Source: a virus
Strand: one strand, 5' to 3'
IMG/VR virus record: IMGVR_UViG_3300028827_000102
Location: 44,581 to 108,580 of that record
DNA: 64,000 nucleotides
Within the stretch, counting starts at the first letter, position 1. The number at the start of each line of letters is the position of its first letter. Below, one piece after another: positions 5,040 through 44,953 of this stretch. Below the pieces are notes generated by a model, which saw only the letters and a program-made list of their open reading frames with translations, ran no database searches and was not told where the DNA came from. The position numbers were made by a program, and so were the translations under genes.

Positions 5040-5535
5040 ACTCTACCTCTTTTTTTAACCGACGATACAGTATTGTATGTAGCCATTTACAAGGAGGCAA
5101 TGCTACTAAAACATTGTCTCCTTTATCTACGAATTTTAGATTCTTTATCTTAATTCTATTAGGAAAGCTGTCCCATACCGATATAAATTTGTTTATCGAG
5201 CTATCGTAGAAAAACCTATTTACATACTTTGTCGGTATTTTTAATTTATTTGCCAGCATTGTGGCTACATAGTAGCCAGTATCATCATGTATGTCATAAT
5301 CACAACATAAACACCACAACAACACGCAAGACAGTCTTAAATGCTTTCCTTCAGTATGCTGCTTTAGTTTTTTCATAAACAATCCGGCACTCAAATACAC
5401 TCGTTCATCGTGAATGTCAAGGACAATATTACCGTCTTTTATATGATATGAACGTACATCTCCATATGTATTTATCACCCAATCTTTAAGTGGTGTGTCT
5501 TCCATTCTATGATATAATCTATGTATTAGCATCAC
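5020..5535 (-). CDS. Hypothetical protein
   Basis: 171 aa ORF with an overlapping start at the sbcC-like stop. Confidence 0.6.
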   Translation of the reverse strand: MMLIHRLYHRMEDTPLKDWVINTYGDVRSYHIKDGNIVLDIHDERVYLSAGLFMKKLKQHTEGKHLRLSCVLLWCLCCDYDIHDDTGYYVATMLANKLKIPTKYVNRFFYDSSINKFISVWDSFPNRIKIKNLKFVDKGDNVLVALPPCKWLHTILYRRLKKEVEYEHENG

Positions 5536-7982
5536 ACCAACATTGACTTGTCCAGATACGGTTTAAATTTTTCTGGTAGTCCTGTTTTGTACAATTCCGC
5601 TACATGTTCGTTTCGTACAGCCCACCATACCTGATCAAACATATCTTCGTGAACAAACACATCGCGTTGATTGCCAATAACTATTATTGTACCAATTCTT
5701 TTGCGTAGATCATGCAGTATACGTAAAAGACTACTGGTACCCTGCGGATCAAGGTTAGAGAACGGTTCATCTACGACTAATAGATTGGTACTTGTTCCTG
5801 TATATATTTCTTTTAAATCTCTGATACCAAATAGTAAAGCTAAACCGGCCTTGTTCCTTTCGCCACCACTAAACAACCTGCTTACTACTTCAGGACCACC
5901 GTCTTTTCGTCTAAGAGCCACCTTTACGTCTGTACCCGACGCCACTAAATCAAGCACCACATTGCGCTTTGGCCACATTAATTCACTATAGCGAGGGACG
6001 GTTTTAGTCACAGCATCTGTAAGTATTCGCTCAAATCGTATACGTTTAAGACCTTTCGCACCAAAAGCCTTTTTTAGTGCTTCTAAACATTTATAACGTT
6101 TGCGCACCTCTGTCATTTTAGCAAGACCTGATACAATCTTTTCTTTACGCTTCATCATAGCATCGTATCTATCTACACTAGCACCTAAATTACCTACCAT
6201 ACGGTCAGCTTCTGTTTTGCTTTCACGTATACGGTCCAGCTTCAGTTTTGTGTTATGTATAACTTCTCTTAGCTGTTCTATATCACCTGAAGGTAAATCT
6301 TTAATCCTATTCCTTTTGGAAATCATTTCTGTGGCAGCTTCTATCAATGTTTTCTTTTCTTTTATTACTTTTTCATACCGTTTCTTATCTTTTGTTATTT
6401 TATGCTGATCGTTTCCAGACGGAAGTTCTGCCAATTTTGCTTGTATAGTCATCCTAGAAGCCGCAGCTTCTAATTCTTCCACCAAATTTTGCTCTTTTAC
6501 CATAAGAGAATTAAGCATTGTACGAAGAGCTGGCGCATTTTTAGGTGGTTTTGGTATATTCTGAAGTTTTTCTTTTAGCTTGGAATGCTTGTCTGCTGTT
6601 TTCAGCGCTTTTGATATTTCATTTTCCTGGCGAACAAGCTTTTCTAAATATGCACGACGTTTAGCAAGCCTATGTTTCTTTACTGAAACTTCTTTGTCAG
6701 ACATATTAAATGGACGATGACACGTCGGGCACACATCACTCTTTAGGGCTCTATTAAGATCATCTATCTCTTTTTCAGTCTTTGCTATTTCGCCTGTTAA
6801 ATCTTTCCATTGTGCCCTTAGTGCCGTTATATCCATGTCAGGAATAGGACCAAGAGCTTTAATTTCTTCAGCAATCTCTATTCTACGCTCTGCGTTGGGT
6901 ATATAAACATCTTCTATTTTTTGTATTTTCTTTCTAACGCTTTTTAAATCATCTTCTATTTCGTCTTTATCTCTTGAATCGGGCAATGCTTCTAATCTTG
7001 TCTTCAGTGTAGCAACTCTTCCTATGGCATCTAAAGCAGCTTTGCATTGTTCTACTTGCTTTATTGCATTTTCATAGCTGACCGACAATTTTTCAACATA
7101 TTCGTCATCTATATCATCTACAGAACCTACACCAAAATCAACACTGCTCCATATTTCTTCTATTTCTTTTTGTATTTGATTATATTCTTTTACTTCACGT
7201 AATCTATGCTGTAAACGATTCAACCGTTTTGTTCCGACAGAAAATTCTTTATCTAGACGTTCTGCTTCTTTTCTATAGTAAGCCAGATCCTCTACCAGAT
7301 CGTACATAGACTTCCCAAAGCTATCCAAGGCTGCATTAACATCTTCCAACTCTCGTTCGAGTTTTTCGGCATCCCTGAGTACTATTTTGTCGGTAACTAA
7401 CATAGATTTAGTCTTCTCTAGTAAATCATCATATACATCTAGAGAAAACATTCTCATCAGACTTTGTTGTCTTTCACTATCTGTTCCTGACAGCAAAACA
7501 TTATTATAATCTTGCGGTAAATAAACAAGACTGAACAAAGATCTGTCATCTAATTTTGTAATGTTATCTACCAACCATTTGGTAGGGTGTTTTCTTGCAG
7601 AAGAAGGTAGTATATTATCGCCTGTGGCAAGATCTATTATACGAAAGGAATTTCCATATTTTCCGTGGTTTCTGTACTGAACAATTTCGTATTTATGTCC
7701 ATCTACAGATAAATGTAAATGTGCCTCATAGTTTCCGCCAGATTGTACATTTATCACATCAGATACAAATGTGCGTTCGCTTCTACCAGTACCTTTTCCG
7801 CTTTTTCCTACTAGTAAATGAGAAAAAATTTCAAATGGGCTGGTTTTACCGGCTCCTAGAAACCCACCATCATCTACATTCAATCCACGTAAAAGCACCA
7901 ACCCCTGATTCTGCAGCGGAATATCACATGTTTTGTACGCATAACCATTATTAAACCAAAGCTTTGTGTATTCTACTCTCAT
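5532..7982 (-). CDS. sbcC: SbcC/Rad50/gp46-like recombination ATPase
   Basis: Walker A GAGKT, Q-loop YLPQ, zinc hook CPTC mid coiled coil, signature FSGGE, Walker B LVVDEPF. Confidence 0.93.
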   Translation of the reverse strand: MRVEYTKLWFNNGYAYKTCDIPLQNQGLVLLRGLNVDDGGFLGAGKTSPFEIFSHLLVGKSGKGTGRSERTFVSDVINVQSGGNYEAHLHLSVDGHKYEIVQYRNHGKYGNSFRIIDLATGDNILPSSARKHPTKWLVDNITKLDDRSLFSLVYLPQDYNNVLLSGTDSERQQSLMRMFSLDVYDDLLEKTKSMLVTDKIVLRDAEKLERELEDVNAALDSFGKSMYDLVEDLAYYRKEAERLDKEFSVGTKRLNRLQHRLREVKEYNQIQKEIEEIWSSVDFGVGSVDDIDDEYVEKLSVSYENAIKQVEQCKAALDAIGRVATLKTRLEALPDSRDKDEIEDDLKSVRKKIQKIEDVYIPNAERRIEIAEEIKALGPIPDMDITALRAQWKDLTGEIAKTEKEIDDLNRALKSDVCPTCHRPFNMSDKEVSVKKHRLAKRRAYLEKLVRQENEISKALKTADKHSKLKEKLQNIPKPPKNAPALRTMLNSLMVKEQNLVEELEAAASRMTIQAKLAELPSGNDQHKITKDKKRYEKVIKEKKTLIEAATEMISKRNRIKDLPSGDIEQLREVIHNTKLKLDRIRESKTEADRMVGNLGASVDRYDAMMKRKEKIVSGLAKMTEVRKRYKCLEALKKAFGAKGLKRIRFERILTDAVTKTVPRYSELMWPKRNVVLDLVASGTDVKVALRRKDGGPEVVSRLFSGGERNKAGLALLFGIRDLKEIYTGTSTNLLVVDEPFSNLDPQGTSSLLRILHDLRKRIGTIIVIGNQRDVFVHEDMFDQVWWAVRNEHVAELYKTGLPEKFKPYLDKSMLV

Positions 7983-9091
7983 AGGTCTTTTGCCAAATTC
8001 GCCAGTTTAACCGCTAACACTTCCAATATAACTTTATTGTTTGTGTAATATGTCTTTATTCTTTCCTGCTCTCTGGTACAAAGATCAAGCATTTCTGCTA
8101 TTATACTGGCCTTAGTAGTAATATTTCCGGATTTGCGGTCAGGTAGTGGGACATTTTTTAACATGAATTTCTTTGTCTCGTCCATTAAATTTGGTGAAAT
8201 CAAATATAATAACAATTGTTCCAACACTACTATAATTTGTCCGATAAAGTAATCATGTGCAGTTACTTCAGTGCTATAAGCTATAGCTTTACCGAACTTT
8301 CCAGACAACACTGAAGCAACATAATGCTGTACAGCTACATAGGTTTTTGTAGCGTCAGATTGCTTGATTATAGCAGGTAGAGCCTTGACTAGATCTTCCC
8401 CTGTCTTACCTGCTGAAGCAACCTGTGATAGCAAATTTAGAGCGTCTCTAGGATGTCCGTCAACAGCCCGGGCAATCTGTAAAGTTGCTTTAGGAGGTAT
8501 AGCTATACCTTCCTTTTTTGCTACAGGCAACAGTAATTTTTTGGCCAAAACTTCTGGCTTAACTGTTTTCAGATAGTATATTAAAGCCCTACTACGTATT
8601 GTGGTGGGAAGTACCTCCGGATTGGTGGTACATAATATAAATCTGGCTTGACTATGAGGTTTCTCAAAAAGACGCAAAGCTGCATCAAACGCCTGCCTGG
8701 TTAGATTATGTGCTTCATCGATTATAAAAAACCGATATTTATGTGGAGATCGGTACTTGGCTTGTTGTTCTAAAGCCCGTATAGCATCTATCCCTCTTTC
8801 GGATACCTGTTTTTCTACTACAGAAGTAGTATCACCACCATAACGAATAGCTTTTATGGTTTGTTTGCAAGAATCACACTTGCCACAAATTTCTCCGTCT
8901 GTCCTATTTGTACAGTTAGCATATAACGCTATCAACCACGCCAATGTGGTTTTCCCTACACCATGAGGACCACACAACAAAATAGTTGGATTGATTTCAT
9001 CTTCCAAAGACCCACGAAGAGACGATACTACGGCATCTTGCCCAACTACTTGAGAAAATTTTATAGGTCTATACTTTGCTGTAAAATTCAT
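7979..9091 (-). CDS. dnaX: DNA polymerase III gamma/tau-like clamp loader ATPase
   Basis: KYRP...VVGQ, GPHGVGKTT, Zn C...CGKCDSC, IIDEAH, TIRSR, DGHPRDALNLL. Confidence 0.93.
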   Translation of the reverse strand: MNFTAKYRPIKFSQVVGQDAVVSSLRGSLEDEINPTILLCGPHGVGKTTLAWLIALYANCTNRTDGEICGKCDSCKQTIKAIRYGGDTTSVVEKQVSERGIDAIRALEQQAKYRSPHKYRFFIIDEAHNLTRQAFDAALRLFEKPHSQARFILCTTNPEVLPTTIRSRALIYYLKTVKPEVLAKKLLLPVAKKEGIAIPPKATLQIARAVDGHPRDALNLLSQVASAGKTGEDLVKALPAIIKQSDATKTYVAVQHYVASVLSGKFGKAIAYSTEVTAHDYFIGQIIVVLEQLLLYLISPNLMDETKKFMLKNVPLPDRKSGNITTKASIIAEMLDLCTREQERIKTYYTNNKVILEVLAVKLANLAKDL

Positions 9092-10089
9092 TCATTCACC
9101 TCTATCAACATTTTTCTGGCTATTTTTTCTGCCATAATAATCATATCTTGTTGTAGGTTTTCTTTTTCTAAGAACTCGTGGAGGTGCATAAGCGGATCTT
9201 CAAAAGACGATTCATACTTGCCATGCACCTTAACTGGAGGTTCATAGATTATATTGTCAGGCAAGACTACATTAGGATCAAGCTCTTTTTGTGGCTTTAA
9301 TTTTAAGAATTCAGGTAAATCATCACCTTTAAATTCATCCCAAACAACTAGAGGATATGGATGGTTGATGCGAACAAATTTTGGTTTTGCTTTGCCTGTG
9401 TCTACGATAAGAACGCCTTTATTTTCATCCTCACCAAAATTTACCTGATGTGGCGATCCTGGATAATAAGCGTTGTCAGATATCTTCTGCCTTTTGTGTA
9501 TATCACCAAGAGCCCAGTATACTATATCTGGCACATGGGGTATTTTGATTTGATTTGATTTTATTACCTTTGTACCATTATCCGTCACGGCTCCTGTAAC
9601 AGCTTCGTGCATAACCGCAATTATAGGTTTATTGCTTCTTGTCCTTATCTTTTCCACCATAGATTTTACTACTATATCAAAGTCATATCCAGACCAACCA
9701 TGAAAAGGTAACAATAAAAACACAACATCATTTATTTCGACAAAATCAGGCAGACCGTCACATATAACATGTTTACCAATAGGTAAATGAGACAGATAAT
9801 TAAGAGCCGTATCACCAAACTTATGTGATACTCTTTGATCATGATTGCCAGAAATAGCTATAACCGGTATAGGACAAGAATGCAACCAACCAGAAAATAA
9901 CAATCTTTCGCTGTTTGTTAAATCCGGTCTATCCCAAATATCGCCAGATATAACTATAGCTTCTGCTTTGTATCTATTTGCTATGGCTGTTATTTTGTTT
10001 AGTGTAAATTTGTGTCTTATAAGGTATTTACCAGGAAACTTTGCCCTTAGACAGTTTAAATGTAAATCTGCAGTGTGTAAAAATCTCAT
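9088..10089 (-). CDS. sbcD: SbcD/Mre11/gp47-like nuclease
   Basis: HTADLH, SGDIWD, GNHD, ALGDIH, YPGSP. Confidence 0.93.
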   Translation of the reverse strand: MRFLHTADLHLNCLRAKFPGKYLIRHKFTLNKITAIANRYKAEAIVISGDIWDRPDLTNSERLLFSGWLHSCPIPVIAISGNHDQRVSHKFGDTALNYLSHLPIGKHVICDGLPDFVEINDVVFLLLPFHGWSGYDFDIVVKSMVEKIRTRSNKPIIAVMHEAVTGAVTDNGTKVIKSNQIKIPHVPDIVYWALGDIHKRQKISDNAYYPGSPHQVNFGEDENKGVLIVDTGKAKPKFVRINHPYPLVVWDEFKGDDLPEFLKLKPQKELDPNVVLPDNIIYEPPVKVHGKYESSFEDPLMHLHEFLEKENLQQDMIIMAEKIARKMLIEVNE

Positions 10090-10343
10090 AGGTCATTTTT
10101 ACGTATGGCTGTACGGTAGTTGTCAATACTACGCAAGGCCGCTTTTGTTATCAGTTTGTGTACTATTCTAGCCAATTCATCATAAAATTCGTCATCTAGT
10201 ACCCTCATGCCCATACTATGCAACAAAGAGTTAACTTTACTTTTATTAATTAAACGTGATACATTTCCATCTTTGGCCCATTTTTTAGAATGGCGTTTTA
10301 CGGTTACTCTGTCTTTTATTTTTTTCTGTTCTGAACCATTCAT
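10086..10343 (-). CDS. Bacterial-type (alpha3) histone-fold protein with basic N-terminal tail
   Basis: LINKSKVNSLL...GMRV...FYDELARIVHKLITKAALRSIDNYRTAIRKNDL matches the LI/VxxSKV start and R...D clamp end of Bdellovibrio/Leptospira histones. ATGA overlaps on both sides. Confidence 0.8.
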   Translation of the reverse strand: MNGSEQKKIKDRVTVKRHSKKWAKDGNVSRLINKSKVNSLLHSMGMRVLDDEFYDELARIVHKLITKAALRSIDNYRTAIRKNDL

Positions 10344-10546
10344 TGTATTTTTTGCTTGAATTCTCTATACGTAGTTATAAGACTACGTATTTCATTTTCT
10401 TTAGATAAGACAAATGCTAGTGTTAATACCGAAGCGGCTACGGACATCAAACCAGTACGTACCTTATCAAACAACTCAAACGGAGATGGATTGTGGTACA
10501 TATTTATTGCATAAGATGGAAATGTATGCGATTGTTTATCAGACAT
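10340..10546 (-). CDS. Small membrane-anchored hypothetical protein
   Basis: One hydrophobic segment (GLMSVAASVLTLAFVL); coupled to recA and the histone gene. Confidence 0.55.
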   Translation of the reverse strand: MSDKQSHTFPSYAINMYHNPSPFELFDKVRTGLMSVAASVLTLAFVLSKENEIRSLITTYREFKQKIQ

Positions 10547-10547
10547 G

Positions 10548-11702
10548 CTATTCTCCCTCTACTTCTACAGAATCATCTGTGCCGTCTAAAGCGTAGTTTT
10601 TATATCCTAGTAGCTTAAAATGTCGTCTATATACAGCATCCTTTTTTAGTAGAGAAAAACAATAATTTCGGAATTCGTCGCTCTCAGCTACTTTTCTAAA
10701 TGCATCCCAAGCTAGATATTTGTCTGTAAAAAACTTTTTAAGCAGTATTTTATTTTTTCCCTGTTTTCTTTCCACCATTCCTATTGCTTCTAGGAAATCT
10801 AGACCGTCTTGAGCTTTATCTATGCCCTTGCCCATTATAATGTCTAATTCAAACTCTTGAAAAGCGGGGAAAGTCTTGTTTTTTATTGTCCTTACCCATA
10901 CATGTTGGCGATACATACCAACTTTATCTTCTTCGGCTTTCTTTCTACCGTGTACTCTAATTGCATAATCAGGATAATACTTCCAAGCCTGCCCTCCTGT
11001 AGGTGCTTCCGGATTAGCACCAGGCATACGCATATTTATATTCATACGTATCTGATTAGAAGCTATCATTATGGCGCCTTTGTGTGCCAGTAATGATTTA
11101 GTTACGCCAAGAAAACGAGAATGCATTCTAGCTTCTAATCCAGCTGCACCTTCTCCCGTTTCCACATCTCTACTCTTAGAAAACATGGCAGCGACACTAT
11201 CCAACAAAATCAAACAACTTGGTTTATTTATATCATGCAAATTCACATCCGGTAGACGTCTAAGAAATCTATGTAGATGTTTATATACCCCTTCACCTGT
11301 TTCTGGTTGAGCATAAAAATACGCAGGAACATTCTTTCCGTTTATTTCTATTGTTTTGTGTATATCTAATCCTTGTGTACGCATATAAACAGGATCGGCT
11401 GAATGTTCTGTATCATAATGAACAATCGGAATATCTAACTTTTGTCCAGATATCGCACAAGCTTGTAAAAATGTACTTTTTCCGGAAGCTTCTGGACCGT
11501 ATATATGCACTAGCCTGCCACACTGAAAACCTCCACCTAACTTCAGATCTGCTATGAGAGATCCAGTAGACAGGGCTTTATCTACACGATGTGCTTCTCC
11601 CAACGAAACGCAACGTATTTCATCTTTTGTATCATTAAATGCATCTACTATAGCTGTTACCGGATCGGTAAATTCTATATCAGACTTTTTCTTTCTCGGC
11701 AT
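10548..11702 (-). CDS. recA: RecA/UvsX recombinase
   Basis: STGSL.AD..LGGG, GPEASGKST, YDTEH, LDSVAAM, NQIR, GGQAWKYY, IKNK. Confidence 0.95.
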   Translation of the reverse strand: MPRKKKSDIEFTDPVTAIVDAFNDTKDEIRCVSLGEAHRVDKALSTGSLIADLKLGGGFQCGRLVHIYGPEASGKSTFLQACAISGQKLDIPIVHYDTEHSADPVYMRTQGLDIHKTIEINGKNVPAYFYAQPETGEGVYKHLHRFLRRLPDVNLHDINKPSCLILLDSVAAMFSKSRDVETGEGAAGLEARMHSRFLGVTKSLLAHKGAIMIASNQIRMNINMRMPGANPEAPTGGQAWKYYPDYAIRVHGRKKAEEDKVGMYRQHVWVRTIKNKTFPAFQEFELDIIMGKGIDKAQDGLDFLEAIGMVERKQGKNKILLKKFFTDKYLAWDAFRKVAESDEFRNYCFSLLKKDAVYRRHFKLLGYKNYALDGTDDSVEVEGE

Positions 11703-11806: not shown

Positions 11807-12889
11807 TCAATCAAAAGTTAGATCGTCATCGTCATCGAAAGAAAAATCATCAAGGTCGTCAGAAGAATCGGAAGAATCATCGTCATCATCATCGAAAGAA
11901 AGGTCATCGTCATCATCATCGAAAGAAAGGTCATCGTCATCATTCTTATTTTTTGCCTTCTTTTTATTGCCCTTATTGCTTTTATTGCTCTTATTGCCTC
12001 TTTTTCTGCTGCTATTTTTCTTAGTATTTGTCTTCTCTTCGTCTACAGTATCTTCGTCATCAAAAGAAATGTCATCAAGATCATCATCATTGTCAGTATC
12101 AAATTCAATATCGTCAGAAGACGTGCCAGACACAGATACAGACACAGGAGCCCCAGTAGCTTTAGCTAAAGCAGCGTAACACCCCAACGAGTGTAACTTC
12201 TGTTCCAACACATCTGAATCTATGGTTTCTATTGAATCAAGCAAATCTACTAGTACGCCTTTATGTACCTTCCCCCCTAGCTTACATACATAAGCATCCT
12301 TATTTTCAATGTATTTCACGGGGAGACGTTTTCCTGTGGATACGAATTTGTATTCTACTCCACTCATATATGGATTGCTGCTCTTTTGTGCTAGCCATGT
12401 GAGCACTACACCACGCTTGTCGTCGTCAACAGAAGAACCTATTGCTTCTGCTATTCCCTTAAGTTCCTTCCACTCCAATACGTTCATATTTACCAGGCCC
12501 CACTGCTCGTCCGCGTTTTTCTTTATATTTGTGATGTGGAAAGCATGAGCCAAGTATCTGAAACTCTGAGGCATACGCAACCACTCAAAATCATTTCTCA
12601 CGTCTATATACTTGTGGAAATTGGCGCATATGGGGCAACCATTATCGACACTGGTAGCCTCAGCTATATCCCAATTTGGACATAAAGTATAGAATCCCTT
12701 TAGATCGTTTGATCCCTTTGGAACAAACTTGACGTAGTGTGTAACTATGGTAGCAAATCCACCTACCAGCCTAATCTGTACCGGCTTTCCAATAGACGGT
12801 CTAGAAAGCAGAGGAAGCATTTCATCCCAACGTGAATCCGACTGCTGCCCAGGAACCTCTCCCATAGAACGGAAACCCTTTTTTCTCAT
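11807..12889 (-). CDS. ssb: Single-stranded DNA-binding protein (gp32-like) with acidic tail
   Basis: SD AAGGAG; H...C...CPIC Zn site, OB-like core, acidic tail ending DDDDLTFD; adjacent to recA. Confidence 0.75.
   Translation of the reverse strand: MRKKGFRSMGEVPGQQSDSRWDEMLPLLSRPSIGKPVQIRLVGGFATIVTHYVKFVPKGSNDLKGFYTLCPNWDIAEATSVDNGCPICANFHKYIDVRNDFEWLRMPQSFRYLAHAFHITNIKKNADEQWGLVNMNVLEWKELKGIAEAIGSSVDDDKRGVVLTWLAQKSSNPYMSGVEYKFVSTGKRLPVKYIENKDAYVCKLGGKVHKGVLVDLLDSIETIDSDVLEQKLHSLGCYAALAKATGAPVSVSVSGTSSDDIEFDTDNDDDLDDISFDDEDTVDEEKTNTKKNSSRKRGNKSNKSNKGNKKKAKNKNDDDDLSFDDDDDDLSFDDDDDDSSDSSDDLDDFSFDDDDDLTFD
11877..11944. repeat. 27-bp tandem repeat (about 2.5 copies) encoding LSFDDDDDD
   Basis: tcatcgtcatcatcatcgaaagaaagg at 11877 and 11904, partial third copy. 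Confidence 0.85.
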
Positions 12890-12907: not shown

Positions 12908-14269
12908 TTAAATATTGTCGATACGATTGGCCATTTCTTTTGCCACTTGTACCTTACACGCTAACTGTCGAAGTGTTTCTGAATATACTTCAGCCATATC
13001 TAATCCAGAATTATCTATGCCATCTAGAAGACCATTACGTAAACATAATACCCTACACTCATCTTTTGTCAAGTGCTTTAACATCTTTAGAATGAAATCC
13101 TTCGTTTCATCATTTACAGTAAAAGTATGCTCTTCATCTGGGACATATACAAGCTTATCTTTATCATATACAGAAACTTCTTTCCATTCTGCATCTTCCT
13201 TTTGATCTTGGTCATAACTTACCACCTGCGAAGCTTGTACTTCTCTTAATGTATCTTCTATTTTCTGTACACTACACCCTACTTCCTCTGCCAGCATATC
13301 ATTAGTTGGTTCAAAGATATTTAGTTCTGAAGCTAACTTACCAGCAGCTGATTGAATCTTTTGGTACATTCTCCATGTAGATGATGGTATTTTTATTAGT
13401 GGACCTCCACTAGATTTTCTGTATGCTTGTATTCTCTGTACTACCCACTGACGGGCAAAAGTGGGAAAAGACATGCGTTGTCTATAATCATAGTCAGAAA
13501 CAGCTCTCCATAAGCCAAAAGAACCAGCTTGTAGCATATCACTGGCATGTAGGTCAGAATAAGCATATTTACGTACTTCTACTACCACTAATTTCATGTA
13601 TGATTGCACAATGCGATTCTGTATTGTAGAAATACGTTTCACTATATTATTCACTATGCCGACAACTCCGTATAAATAGTTTGGGTACATTATTCCAGCT
13701 CTCTGTTCAATAAGCCTTTTTTTATCCGTAAGTTTGCTTATTCTCTTCATTATTGACACAATCTCATCGTTGTCAGTAGACAACGAAACCTTTGTCTTTA
13801 AGGTTGCCAGTTCTAATTCTATTTGCTGGTAGTTAGAAGTAATGGCATCAAATGTACGCAATATTGCTTCATATCTGCTATTACGTAAACGTAGCCTTTC
13901 TAAAACAGCCTTAGTTTCTTTTTCTGCTACATCTCTCGGAGATGCTGCTAGCCTGAATAGACTATAACCGGTACTTAGTATCTGCAAATTTCCTGTACCG
14001 ATTTGTACATCGTTGATAGTAGTAAAACCTTTGCACGATTCATCGTATATACTATATTTTTCGTTTTTGACAGCACCTCCAGCAATCCTGTAAAGAATAT
14101 AACATATATTGTCTTCCACAAATGTGGTGTATTTTACCAATTCTTGTATGCCGATACTTGTGTATATTTCTATATCTTTAAACAAGGAATCCAATGTATG
14201 GTAATCTATATCCGGGGCAGATAATATTTGCTTTGCAATGCTATTGAACATTTCAAATTTATCGGACAT
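12908..14269 (-). CDS. Phage sigma-70 (RpoD-like) factor
   Basis: Region 2 LVVVEVRKY...DMLQAGSFGLWRAVSDYD...FPTFARQWV; region 3 EPTNDMLAEEVG; region 4.1 LTKDECRVLCLRNGL. Confidence 0.88.
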   Translation of the reverse strand: MSDKFEMFNSIAKQILSAPDIDYHTLDSLFKDIEIYTSIGIQELVKYTTFVEDNICYILYRIAGGAVKNEKYSIYDESCKGFTTINDVQIGTGNLQILSTGYSLFRLAASPRDVAEKETKAVLERLRLRNSRYEAILRTFDAITSNYQQIELELATLKTKVSLSTDNDEIVSIMKRISKLTDKKRLIEQRAGIMYPNYLYGVVGIVNNIVKRISTIQNRIVQSYMKLVVVEVRKYAYSDLHASDMLQAGSFGLWRAVSDYDYRQRMSFPTFARQWVVQRIQAYRKSSGGPLIKIPSSTWRMYQKIQSAAGKLASELNIFEPTNDMLAEEVGCSVQKIEDTLREVQASQVVSYDQDQKEDAEWKEVSVYDKDKLVYVPDEEHTFTVNDETKDFILKMLKHLTKDECRVLCLRNGLLDGIDNSGLDMAEVYSETLRQLACKVQVAKEMANRIDNI

Positions 14270-44419: not shown

Positions 44420-44953
44420 ATGTGTTATGTTATTCCAGTTTCTGTTTTGTGTATAGAAGATAATTCTGGCGTAGCAGAAGTCATCAAGCAGCTACTTATC
44501 TATTCTAAAGCCAGACTAAAGTACCGCAATGTACCAACACTAAAGATAGCTCTTCGGGAACTAAAGAAGCACAAGTTTGACATAATTTTGTTAGATCTGA
44601 AGCTACCTGATTCTGTTGGTACAGACACGTATCGTGCAATAGCAGAGGCAACGGATTTGCCGGTAATAGTTATTACCGGAACAGCGTCAGAAGAAGAAAG
44701 ACAAAAAATTTTAGAAATGGGGGCAAAGGATTGTATTCGTAAGGATGAAATTACTTCTGACAATTTATGGCGAGCCATTCGATACGTATTGATAGAAAAA
44801 CTCCATGAGGAAGAGATAGCTAATGTAATGAAGGAAATAAAAGAGATAAAGGAACACGTACGTCTGGCCTTTGCCAAGATCCATGCAGTGACAGATCGGT
44901 TAGACAACATCATGCTACCTTTTTCTTCCAACGATGACGCCACGCAGAAATAG
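44420..44953 (+). CDS. CheY-like response regulator receiver with coiled-coil tail
   Basis: IEDN, LLDLKLPDS.G, PVIVITG, GAKDCIRK. Confidence 0.92.
   Translation: MCYVIPVSVLCIEDNSGVAEVIKQLLIYSKARLKYRNVPTLKIALRELKKHKFDIILLDLKLPDSVGTDTYRAIAEATDLPVIVITGTASEEERQKILEMGAKDCIRKDEITSDNLWRAIRYVLIEKLHEEEIANVMKEIKEIKEHVRLAFAKIHAVTDRLDNIMLPFSSNDDATQK

Follow-up and report, generated by a model that had tools for sequence, protein, structure and literature searches.

The DNA considered here, referred to below as the window, comprises the 64,000 nucleotides from position 44,581 to position 108,580 of the IMG/VR virus record IMGVR_UViG_3300028827_000102, i.e., the 3' 64 kb of a 108.6-kb record with a CheckV completeness of 31%. 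The record contains phage genes for a DNA polymerase, both topoisomerase II subunits, a DNA ligase, a large terminase and a portal protein, and is therefore regarded as part of the genome of a large tailed phage. This report concerns a minus-strand gene at 10086..10343 (85 codons plus a TGA stop), which is predicted to encode a histone of the face-to-face (FtF, alpha3-type) class with an additional N-terminal helix. Its translation is identical to the sequence given in an earlier note made from the letters of the window. The helix (alphaN; codons 3-24, 10272..10337 on the minus strand), described as basic and amphipathic, was delimited from an AlphaFold2 (AF2) model, a four-copy model and sequence conservation. 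The histone fold (codons 27-85, 10089..10265 on the minus strand), delimited from secondary structure, superposition and residue mapping, consists of alpha1 (34-43), loop L1, alpha2 (52-74), loop L2 and an alpha3 stub (82-84). Start/stop overlaps of the form ATGA, pointed out in the same note, are present at both gene ends ('tcat' on the plus strand at 10086-10089 and 10340-10343); the start of the histone gene overlaps the stop of a small open reading frame (orf68), and its stop overlaps the start of an SbcD-like gene. The whole protein has an isoelectric point of 10.2 and a net charge of +10, its first 28 residues contain 9 lysines or arginines (net +6), and its C-terminus reads R77-T78-A79-I80-R81-K82-N83-D84-L85.

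As a single sequence the histone protein yielded no significant family in Pfam, PHROGs or NCBIfam, the best match being DUF2767 with an E value of 0.097. The curated libraries are silent on the single sequence because the protein is too short and too divergent, and the histone fold is visible only with profiles or structure. A word-index homologue search with the single protein returned only the match to itself, and a tblastn search of the INPHARED GenBank phages with the window protein and a second copy, from the related contig L032, gave nothing meaningful, with no copy detectable there. Against PDB sequences, the single sequence gave weak matches to HLp (9QT0, E 0.33) and HTkC (9F2C, E 0.53); both of the matches listed belong to FtF histones. 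Three small homologues, of 78-84 amino acids, came from an exhaustive HMMER search among 1.8 billion representatives. A profile of four sequences matched HLp with an E value of 2.8e-9, HTkC with 5.8e-7 and HBb with 0.02, and a profile of 15 sequences matched the same three proteins with 5.5e-11, 3e-6 and 1.9e-3, respectively. A seven-sequence profile matched 1171 proteins, and many of the matches listed carried PF00808, PF00125 or PF09123 or had the source name 'histone H3/H4'. Sixteen further members of the clade were gathered, with identities of 29-47% in the alignments made.

The AF2 model, computed on an alignment of 33 rows, reached a predicted local distance difference test score (pLDDT) of 95 and a predicted template modelling (TM) score of 0.80. 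It shows helices at residues 3-24, 28-31, 34-43 and 52-74 and a three-residue turn at 82-84, directly before the chain end at residue 85. Foldseek ranked HLp highest (TM score by target 0.91, root-mean-square deviation (rmsd) 0.8 Å over 55 residues), followed by HTkC, HBb and the eukaryotic histones H4 and H3. Regarding VIA-align, HLp gave a Z value of 7.1 and an rmsd of 1.0 Å over 57 of 57 residues, HTkC a Z value of 6.7 and an rmsd of 1.2 Å over 57 residues, and HBb Z values of 6.3-6.6; the small size of the domain keeps these values modest. The modelled structure matches its target over the whole length at about 1 Å and in this agrees with the sequence profiles. The copy from L032, modelled independently as a second clade member, gave the same picture (HLp Z 7.8), and ESM Atlas leads agree with the reading as a histone. 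In silico, there is strong support for a histone fold in residues 27-85, in which alpha2 is short and alpha3 is a stub of three residues. The earlier proposal of a phage-encoded histone of bacterial type with a basic N-terminal extension is borne out in that profile matches, AF2, Foldseek and VIA-align all point the same way. A spurious or chance open reading frame at 10086-10343 was also considered, and was ruled out by the conserved homologues and the pLDDT of 95.

In alpha3-truncated histones, alpha3 has 3-4 residues and alpha2 is shortened relative to that of nucleosomal histones (Schwab et al. 2024, PMC11390915). With alpha2 at 52-74, alpha3 at 82-84 and a superposition on all 56-57 residues of HLp and HTkC at 0.8-1.2 Å, the modelled window protein falls within this group. 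Membership of the nucleosomal (HMf-type) histones, which tetramerise through a four-helix bundle, was rejected, with an alpha3 of three residues versus about ten and with weaker matches to HMfA and HMfB (Z 4.8-5.0, rmsd about 2 Å). For FtF histones, the defining features are the tetramer and the conserved residues R48, N52, R54, T56, D61 and K16 in the numbering of the hidden Markov model (HMM) (Schwab et al. 2024, PMC11390915), and in HLp the dimer-dimer interface is formed by R49, N53 and R55, with R55 and D62 forming the RD clamp (Hu et al. 2025, PMC12701072). The alignments map R49, N53, R55 and D62 of HLp to R71, N75, R77 and D84 of the window protein, of which the last three occur without exception in the 17 members of the phage clade and R71 in 16 of them. 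Bacterial dimer histones such as HBb are without the FtF residues R48 and N52 (Schwab et al. 2024, PMC11390915), and the presence of R71 and N75 therefore places the window protein with the HLp/FtF type and not with the Bd0055 type. Membership of the HBb/Bd0055 dimer type was rejected on these two residues and on the profile matches, in which HBb trails HTkC and HLp by 3-8 orders of magnitude. The likeness to Bd0055 drawn in the earlier note has accordingly been replaced by one to HLp (5.5e-11 versus 1.9e-3 for HBb; R71, N75 and R77 present), whereas its description of the C-terminal motif RxTxxxxD holds: the R...D clamp is kept (R77 and D84), and the threonine position is occupied by alanine (A79), as it is in the closest homologue, P0002. 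Membership of the 'phage histones' of Schwab et al., also called VTTHFPs, was likewise rejected; the window protein ends three residues after loop L2, keeps R77...D84 and has its extra helix at the N-terminus.

A four-copy model of the window protein scored 0.86, compared with 0.16 for the best of three controls; among proteins of solved structure, 20 of 30 that are pairs of one chain and one of 23 that are single chains attained this mark. The runs of the four-copy model share at least 96% of their contacts, with a partner pLDDT of at least 89. The confident contacts describe a handshake dimer formed by alpha1 and alpha2 (e.g., 57-61-65) and a second interface, across dimers, at residues 70-71, 74-75, 81 and 83-84, which is the site expected for an FtF histone. 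The predicted assembly thus consists of two handshake dimers that pair face to face into a tetramer. The structural comparison suggested earlier (HBb, HLp and HMf, together with a multi-copy model) has in this way returned a predicted histone fold, handshake dimer and FtF contacts.

Regarding the N-terminal extension, residues 3-24 are a confident helix in the AF2 model (block pLDDT 87-97), of which residues 11, 14-15, 18-19 and 21-22 touch the dimer partner in the four-copy model. Within the clade, valine, isoleucine or methionine is found at position 15 (15 of 17 members) and an aromatic residue at position 22 (17 of 17), along with small residues at 18 and 19, a lysine at 21 and an acidic residue at 25; the face of alphaN that contacts the partner coincides with the conserved positions. 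Most of the extension is predicted to be an ordered, amphipathic and very basic helix that lies on the dimer partner and is conserved in a clade found only in phages. True lysine-rich tails ahead of the helix occur in other members: a lysine-rich segment of 19 residues in L032, with predicted disorder (pLDDT 54-58), precedes the conserved helix, and such tails are also found in L031, L033, L035 and P0049. In P0049 (106 amino acids, from a 4.8-kb Logan contig), 21 of the 49 residues of the tail are lysine or arginine, and the tail of L035:5621-5992(+) contains AKKKKKK runs. To judge from the aligned sequences, tail length and charge vary widely within this one clade, and the extension has two parts, a variable basic tail and the conserved alphaN; in the window protein it is almost wholly helix, which is the most basic N-extension among the 17 with the exception of the long tail of P0049. 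The FtF tails of bacteria are common and positively charged and have no conserved sequence (Schwab et al. 2024, PMC11390915), so that the conserved helix is a distinguishing mark of the phage clade. A tree computed on the last 57 residues, i.e., with the extension excluded, set the N-extended proteins off by a branch (support 92/89; present in 90% of the bootstrap trees).

Several statements of the earlier note about the extension need revision. What it called a lysine-rich tail is indeed basic (9 of 28 residues), but residues 3-24 form a confident helix and are not floppy. A tail that carries modifications is less likely for the window copy, since its extension is mostly an ordered helix in contact with the dimer partner. 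The remark that most such histones are tail-less does not agree with the positively charged tails that bacterial FtF histones commonly have (PMC11390915) and that, according to a recent survey, are also present in viral ones (PMC13681535).

On the minus strand, the order of genes around the histone is RecA/UvsX, orf68, histone, SbcD, a DnaX-like clamp-loader subunit and SbcC/Rad50. The RecA/UvsX-like recombinase (10548..11702, minus strand) matched Pfam RecA with 1.8e-35 and PHROG 97 (UvsX-like) with 9.6e-50. Between it and the histone gene lies orf68 (10340..10546, minus strand; 68 codons with one hydrophobic stretch), whose stop overlaps the histone start (ATGA) and which has neither a family in Pfam, PHROG or NCBIfam nor a counterpart in the related loci examined. 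Of the position between recA and sbcD given in the earlier note, the sbcD side stands, whereas recA is not adjacent because orf68 (10340-10546) intervenes. The SbcD/gp47-like nuclease subunit (9088..10089, minus strand) matched Metallophos with 6.3e-11 and PHROG 100 (SbcD-like) with 9.3e-25, and the clamp-loader (DnaX/gp44-like) AAA+ subunit (7979..9091, minus strand) matched DNA_pol3_delta2 with 9.8e-26. The SbcC/Rad50-like ATPase (5532..7982, minus strand) matched SMC_N, AAA_23 and SbcC_Walker_B, all below the Pfam cut-offs, and shares 33-45% identity, along up to about 820 residues, with the gene at the same position in related loci. Overlaps of four nucleotides between stop and start chain orf68, histone, sbcD, the clamp-loader gene and sbcC (10340-10343, 10086-10089, 9088-9091 and 7979-7982). 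The clamp-loader gene splits the usually adjacent pair of sbcD and sbcC, an order that is kept in relatives.

Upstream of recA, a protein of 360 amino acids with a long acidic C-terminal tail is encoded at 11807..12889 (minus strand), with homologues at the same position in L003, L032-L035 and others. The tail is rich in aspartate and serine and in repeats, with 'DDDDDLSFD' units; the protein is conserved next to recA in relatives, is SSB/gp32-like by position only and yielded no family or PDB sequence match. A phage factor of the sigma-70 family (12908..14269, minus strand; Sigma70_r2 6.2e-10, r3 4.9e-6) heads the conserved block and is syntenic in L003, L032-L034 and others. The replication and recombination block with the histone is located on the strand opposite to the terminase-portal block. 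Shine-Dalgarno use is moderate and uninformative with respect to the host. The sequencing runs listed for the sequence include no RNA run; the four DNA rows listed are all from one metagenome study of 2015 (shares 0.15-0.28).

The histone gene is located directly upstream of sbcD in a module of RecA, SbcD, clamp loader and SbcC in ten phage contigs, including the metagenome contigs L002, L003, L004 and L015 and the IMG/VR contigs L031-L035 (records of 54 to 350 kb). The IMG/VR relatives were reached via SbcD alignment, and the phage relatives extend up to 260-390 kb; the tailed homologues in the same synteny that the earlier note proposed to look for in viral databases were found among them (L031, L032, L033 and L035). 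Scans of IMG/VR with three histone-derived patterns yielded nothing. Where the contig is long enough, the clamp loader and sbcC follow downstream, and the sigma factor, the 360-residue protein and recA precede upstream. The neighbours within the module are only 30-50% identical to those of the window, and the arrangement of genes is therefore old. Every clade member with a readable context sits in such a phage block of RecA and SbcD; copies without the N-extension that could be placed were found on high-GC contigs (0.71-0.74), without this synteny, and these copies are presumably bacterial. In the tree of the core fold, the phage clade is separate from the sampled bacterial and short groups, and of two scans of genome contigs for a donor lineage, the first found nothing and the second one uncultured metagenome-assembled genome. 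The suggestion that the gene hints at a histone-bearing host lineage finds no support in these results.

Five more distant relatives (L036-L040) have the sigma factor or a homologue of the 360-residue protein, RecA and SbcD in the same order and no histone; in four of them (L037-L040, about 5360-6000 on the plus strand) a conserved neutral protein of about 200-213 amino acids stands immediately upstream of sbcD in place of the histone. What lies between recA and the histone gene varies, this slot being an insertion point with orf68 in the window, an open reading frame of about 350 amino acids in L003 and L035 and, in L015, L034 and L035, an HNH gene. In these last three contigs the histone domain is the C-terminal end of frames of 274-321 amino acids (L015:2060-3022(+), L034:5158-5979(+) and L035:5078-5989(+)), whose N-terminal part is a zinc finger with an HNH endonuclease (PF01844, E 4e-7 to 7e-8). 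There is no stop codon between the HNH and the histone part; the frames are 38-41% identical overall and differ in the length of the linker, and a motif resembling a Shine-Dalgarno sequence together with an ATG is found just before the histone part in each. Such a frame may yield a genuine HNH-histone fusion, a separate histone nested within it, or both products. A frame of this kind was not found in the histone surveys consulted.

Among known proteins, HLp of Leptospira perolatii (9QT0/9QT1/9QT2; PMC12701072) is the best match in both sequence and structure and shares with the window protein the short alpha2, the alpha3 stub, the RD clamp, the tetramer residues and the position of the paired-ends motif. 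HLp is cellular, has 63 amino acids and a short disordered N-terminus and is a DNA-wrapping tetramer by experiment, whereas the window protein belongs to a phage and has an extra helix of 22 residues, one extra residue in L1, and N38, H42, V48, D50 and A79 in place of K17, K21, T27, G29 and T57. The second-best match, HTkC of Thermococcus kodakarensis (9F2C; PMC11390915), forms a torus-shaped tetramer; it is archaeal, tail-less and without alphaN. HBb (Bd0055) of Bdellovibrio bacteriovorus (8CMP, 8FVX) has the alpha3-truncated fold and the RD clamp in common with the window protein, but is a dimer, belongs to the group without R48/N52 and gave a much weaker profile match (1.9e-3). The 'phage histones' of Schwab et al. 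2024 (e.g., A0A2E7QIQ9; VTTHFPs in Liu et al. 2025) resemble the window protein in being encoded by tailed phages and in their alpha3-type fold; they have a C-terminal tetramerisation helix and are without RxTxxxxD (PMC11390915), whereas the window protein keeps the R...D pair and is extended at the N-terminus. Eukaryotic H3 (about 42-124) and NF-YC/HapE align loosely with alphaN and the fold together (Z about 5, rmsd 3.3-5 Å over 68-74 residues), but with 10-18% identity, a full-length alpha3 and different assemblies they give no evidence of kinship beyond the fold. The 'moraphage' protein (PMC12619734) was rejected as a relative, being H1/Hc1-like and not a histone fold.

Tailed viral FtF histone-fold proteins (VFFHFPs) have been described computationally from metagenomes (Liu et al. 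2025, hLife, PMC13681535). According to that article, they are encoded by Caudoviricetes, derive from IMG/VR phage contigs and combine an FtF-like alpha3 fold with AlphaFold-predicted tetramers and a lysine-rich N-terminal extension of 5-40 residues. The window protein is alike in these respects, originating from an IMG/VR phage record and having an FtF fold, a predicted tetramer and an extension of 28 residues with 9 lysines or arginines. The article describes the extension as a tail, whereas that of the window protein is mostly a conserved predicted helix and its gene has a fixed place upstream of sbcD; gene neighbourhood, synteny, RecA, recombination, SbcCD, HNH and nucleases are not mentioned in its text. 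The viral FtF class has thus already been published, and the window copy is a good new example with new details and an incremental one. Three such details were not found in the articles consulted, i.e., the conserved alphaN, the fixed place in a block of RecA, SbcCD and clamp loader, and the variants that lack the lysine and threonine or share a frame with HNH.

Taken together, the window gene is read as encoding an FtF alpha3 histone of a phage, an HLp-like DNA-binding tetramer that probably coats or compacts replicating phage DNA; the probability of this reading is put at roughly 0.55. HLp is a tetramer that binds DNA non-specifically and wraps about 60 bp (Hu et al. 2025, PMC12701072) and, as stated in the abstract of the same article, reorganises the nucleoid of E. 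coli. By homology, the tetramer of the phage protein would bind DNA without sequence preference and bend or wrap about 50-60 bp of it. Since start/stop overlaps chain the gene with those for RecA, orf68, SbcD, the clamp loader and SbcC, production together with replication and recombination proteins is probable. Such co-expression would suggest a role on replicating phage DNA, on which the histone would probably act as a phage-encoded nucleoid-associated protein. The residues K34-S35-K36 correspond to the paired-ends motif of HLp (A13-S14-K15) and are kept, as is T78, and an arginine in L1 (R47) is conserved in 14 of the 17 clade members.

Several results weigh against this reading. The alpha1 lysine (K16 of the HMM, K17 of HLp), present in 16 of the 17 clade members, is N38 in the window copy, and the L2 threonine (T56 of the HMM, T57 of HLp), present in 15 of the 17, is A79. 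As far as the aligned residues indicate, the two best conserved DNA-contact residues of FtF histones are lost, which weakens a simple transfer of the HLp mechanism. K21, T27 and G29 of HLp are replaced as well, by H42, V48 and D50, and the loop L1 carries acidic residues (D50-D51-E52). Additional DNA contacts would come from the outer, basic face of alphaN and might offset the losses at N38 and A79, a compensation that is speculative. The pass of the four-copy model may partly reflect the solved tetramers of HLp and HTkC, and its score relates a partner to all other chains and is dominated by the dimer, so that the dimer-dimer interface has no separate score. In large phages, descent alone can preserve the order of genes, and synteny is no proof of a functional link. 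Promoter-like sites number 32 against an expectation of 34.6, which is chance level, and a terminator scan, likewise at chance level, gave no terminator-like site on the coding strand from recA to the clamp-loader gene. Viral FtF histones have no bench study in the literature.

The same properties have been weighed under other explanations. If the tetramer condensed the host nucleoid and shut down host transcription and replication early in infection, it would be a factor of host take-over directed chiefly against the host chromosome and not an organiser of phage DNA; the very basic protein, the placement of its gene in the replication and recombination block and not among structural genes, and the effect on the E. 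coli nucleoid given for HLp in the abstract of PMC12701072 could all be understood in this way. A non-specific binder, however, cannot separate host from phage DNA without a modification or a compartment, neither of which was identified in the analysis, and a role in take-over is considered rather unlikely. It also counts against this role that the known phage nucleoid disruptors are unrelated proteins. A basic protein could equally be packaged with the genome and neutralise its charge in a very large capsid, and the genome is indeed large (the 108.6-kb record is 31% complete by CheckV, and relatives have 260-390 kb); with the gene in the replication and recombination block, on the strand opposite to the terminase-portal block, such a virion protein is scarcely to be expected. 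An arrest of assembly at the handshake dimer, with DNA bent in the manner of HBb and alphaN obstructing or substituting for the face-to-face contact, would fit the structural match to HBb (Z 6.3-6.6), the enlargement of the dimer interface by alphaN in the model and the weight of the dimer in the complex score. It does not fit the presence of R71 and N75, counterparts of which bacterial dimer histones lack (Schwab et al. 2024, PMC11390915), the profile scores, 3-8 orders of magnitude better for HLp and HTkC than for HBb, or the confident cross-dimer contacts at the expected residues, and is very unlikely.

A more specific role is suggested by the position of the gene. The histone-fold MHF (CENP-S/X) tetramer assists FANCM, and the phage tetramer could in a similar manner be a dedicated partner of RecA/UvsX or SbcCD at DNA ends or branched DNA. 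The place immediately upstream of sbcD is fixed in the ten phage contigs, unlike the slot on the histone's own upstream side. The start/stop overlaps suggest translational coupling, an HNH nuclease shares the open frame in three relatives, and the canonical contacts are lost in the window copy (K to N38, T to A79). The relatives L036-L040 keep the same order from sigma factor and RecA to SbcD without a histone, however, and the analogy to MHF rests on the fold class only, so that a cofactor in recombination or repair is judged unlikely. The same judgement applies to the fuller version of this idea, in which the histone, no general packaging protein, would be a built-in part of the machinery for recombination-dependent replication and end processing and be made together with RecA/UvsX, SbcCD and the clamp loader, alphaN would dock to it or bind DNA ends, and the tetramer would, where fused to HNH in some relatives, tether the nuclease to DNA. 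If this were true, a bacterial virus would have a histone-fold cofactor of DNA repair that functionally parallels eukaryotic MHF-FANCM.

For the reading preferred here, a phage-encoded FtF histone on replicating phage DNA, the value of the window copy is that of a concrete and well-modelled candidate; the lineage it comes from is one of uncultured phages of very large size. The study of bacterial and viral histones is a young field, in which the structure of HLp was solved only in 2025, and the variants described above could show how a minimal histone adapts to viral DNA metabolism.

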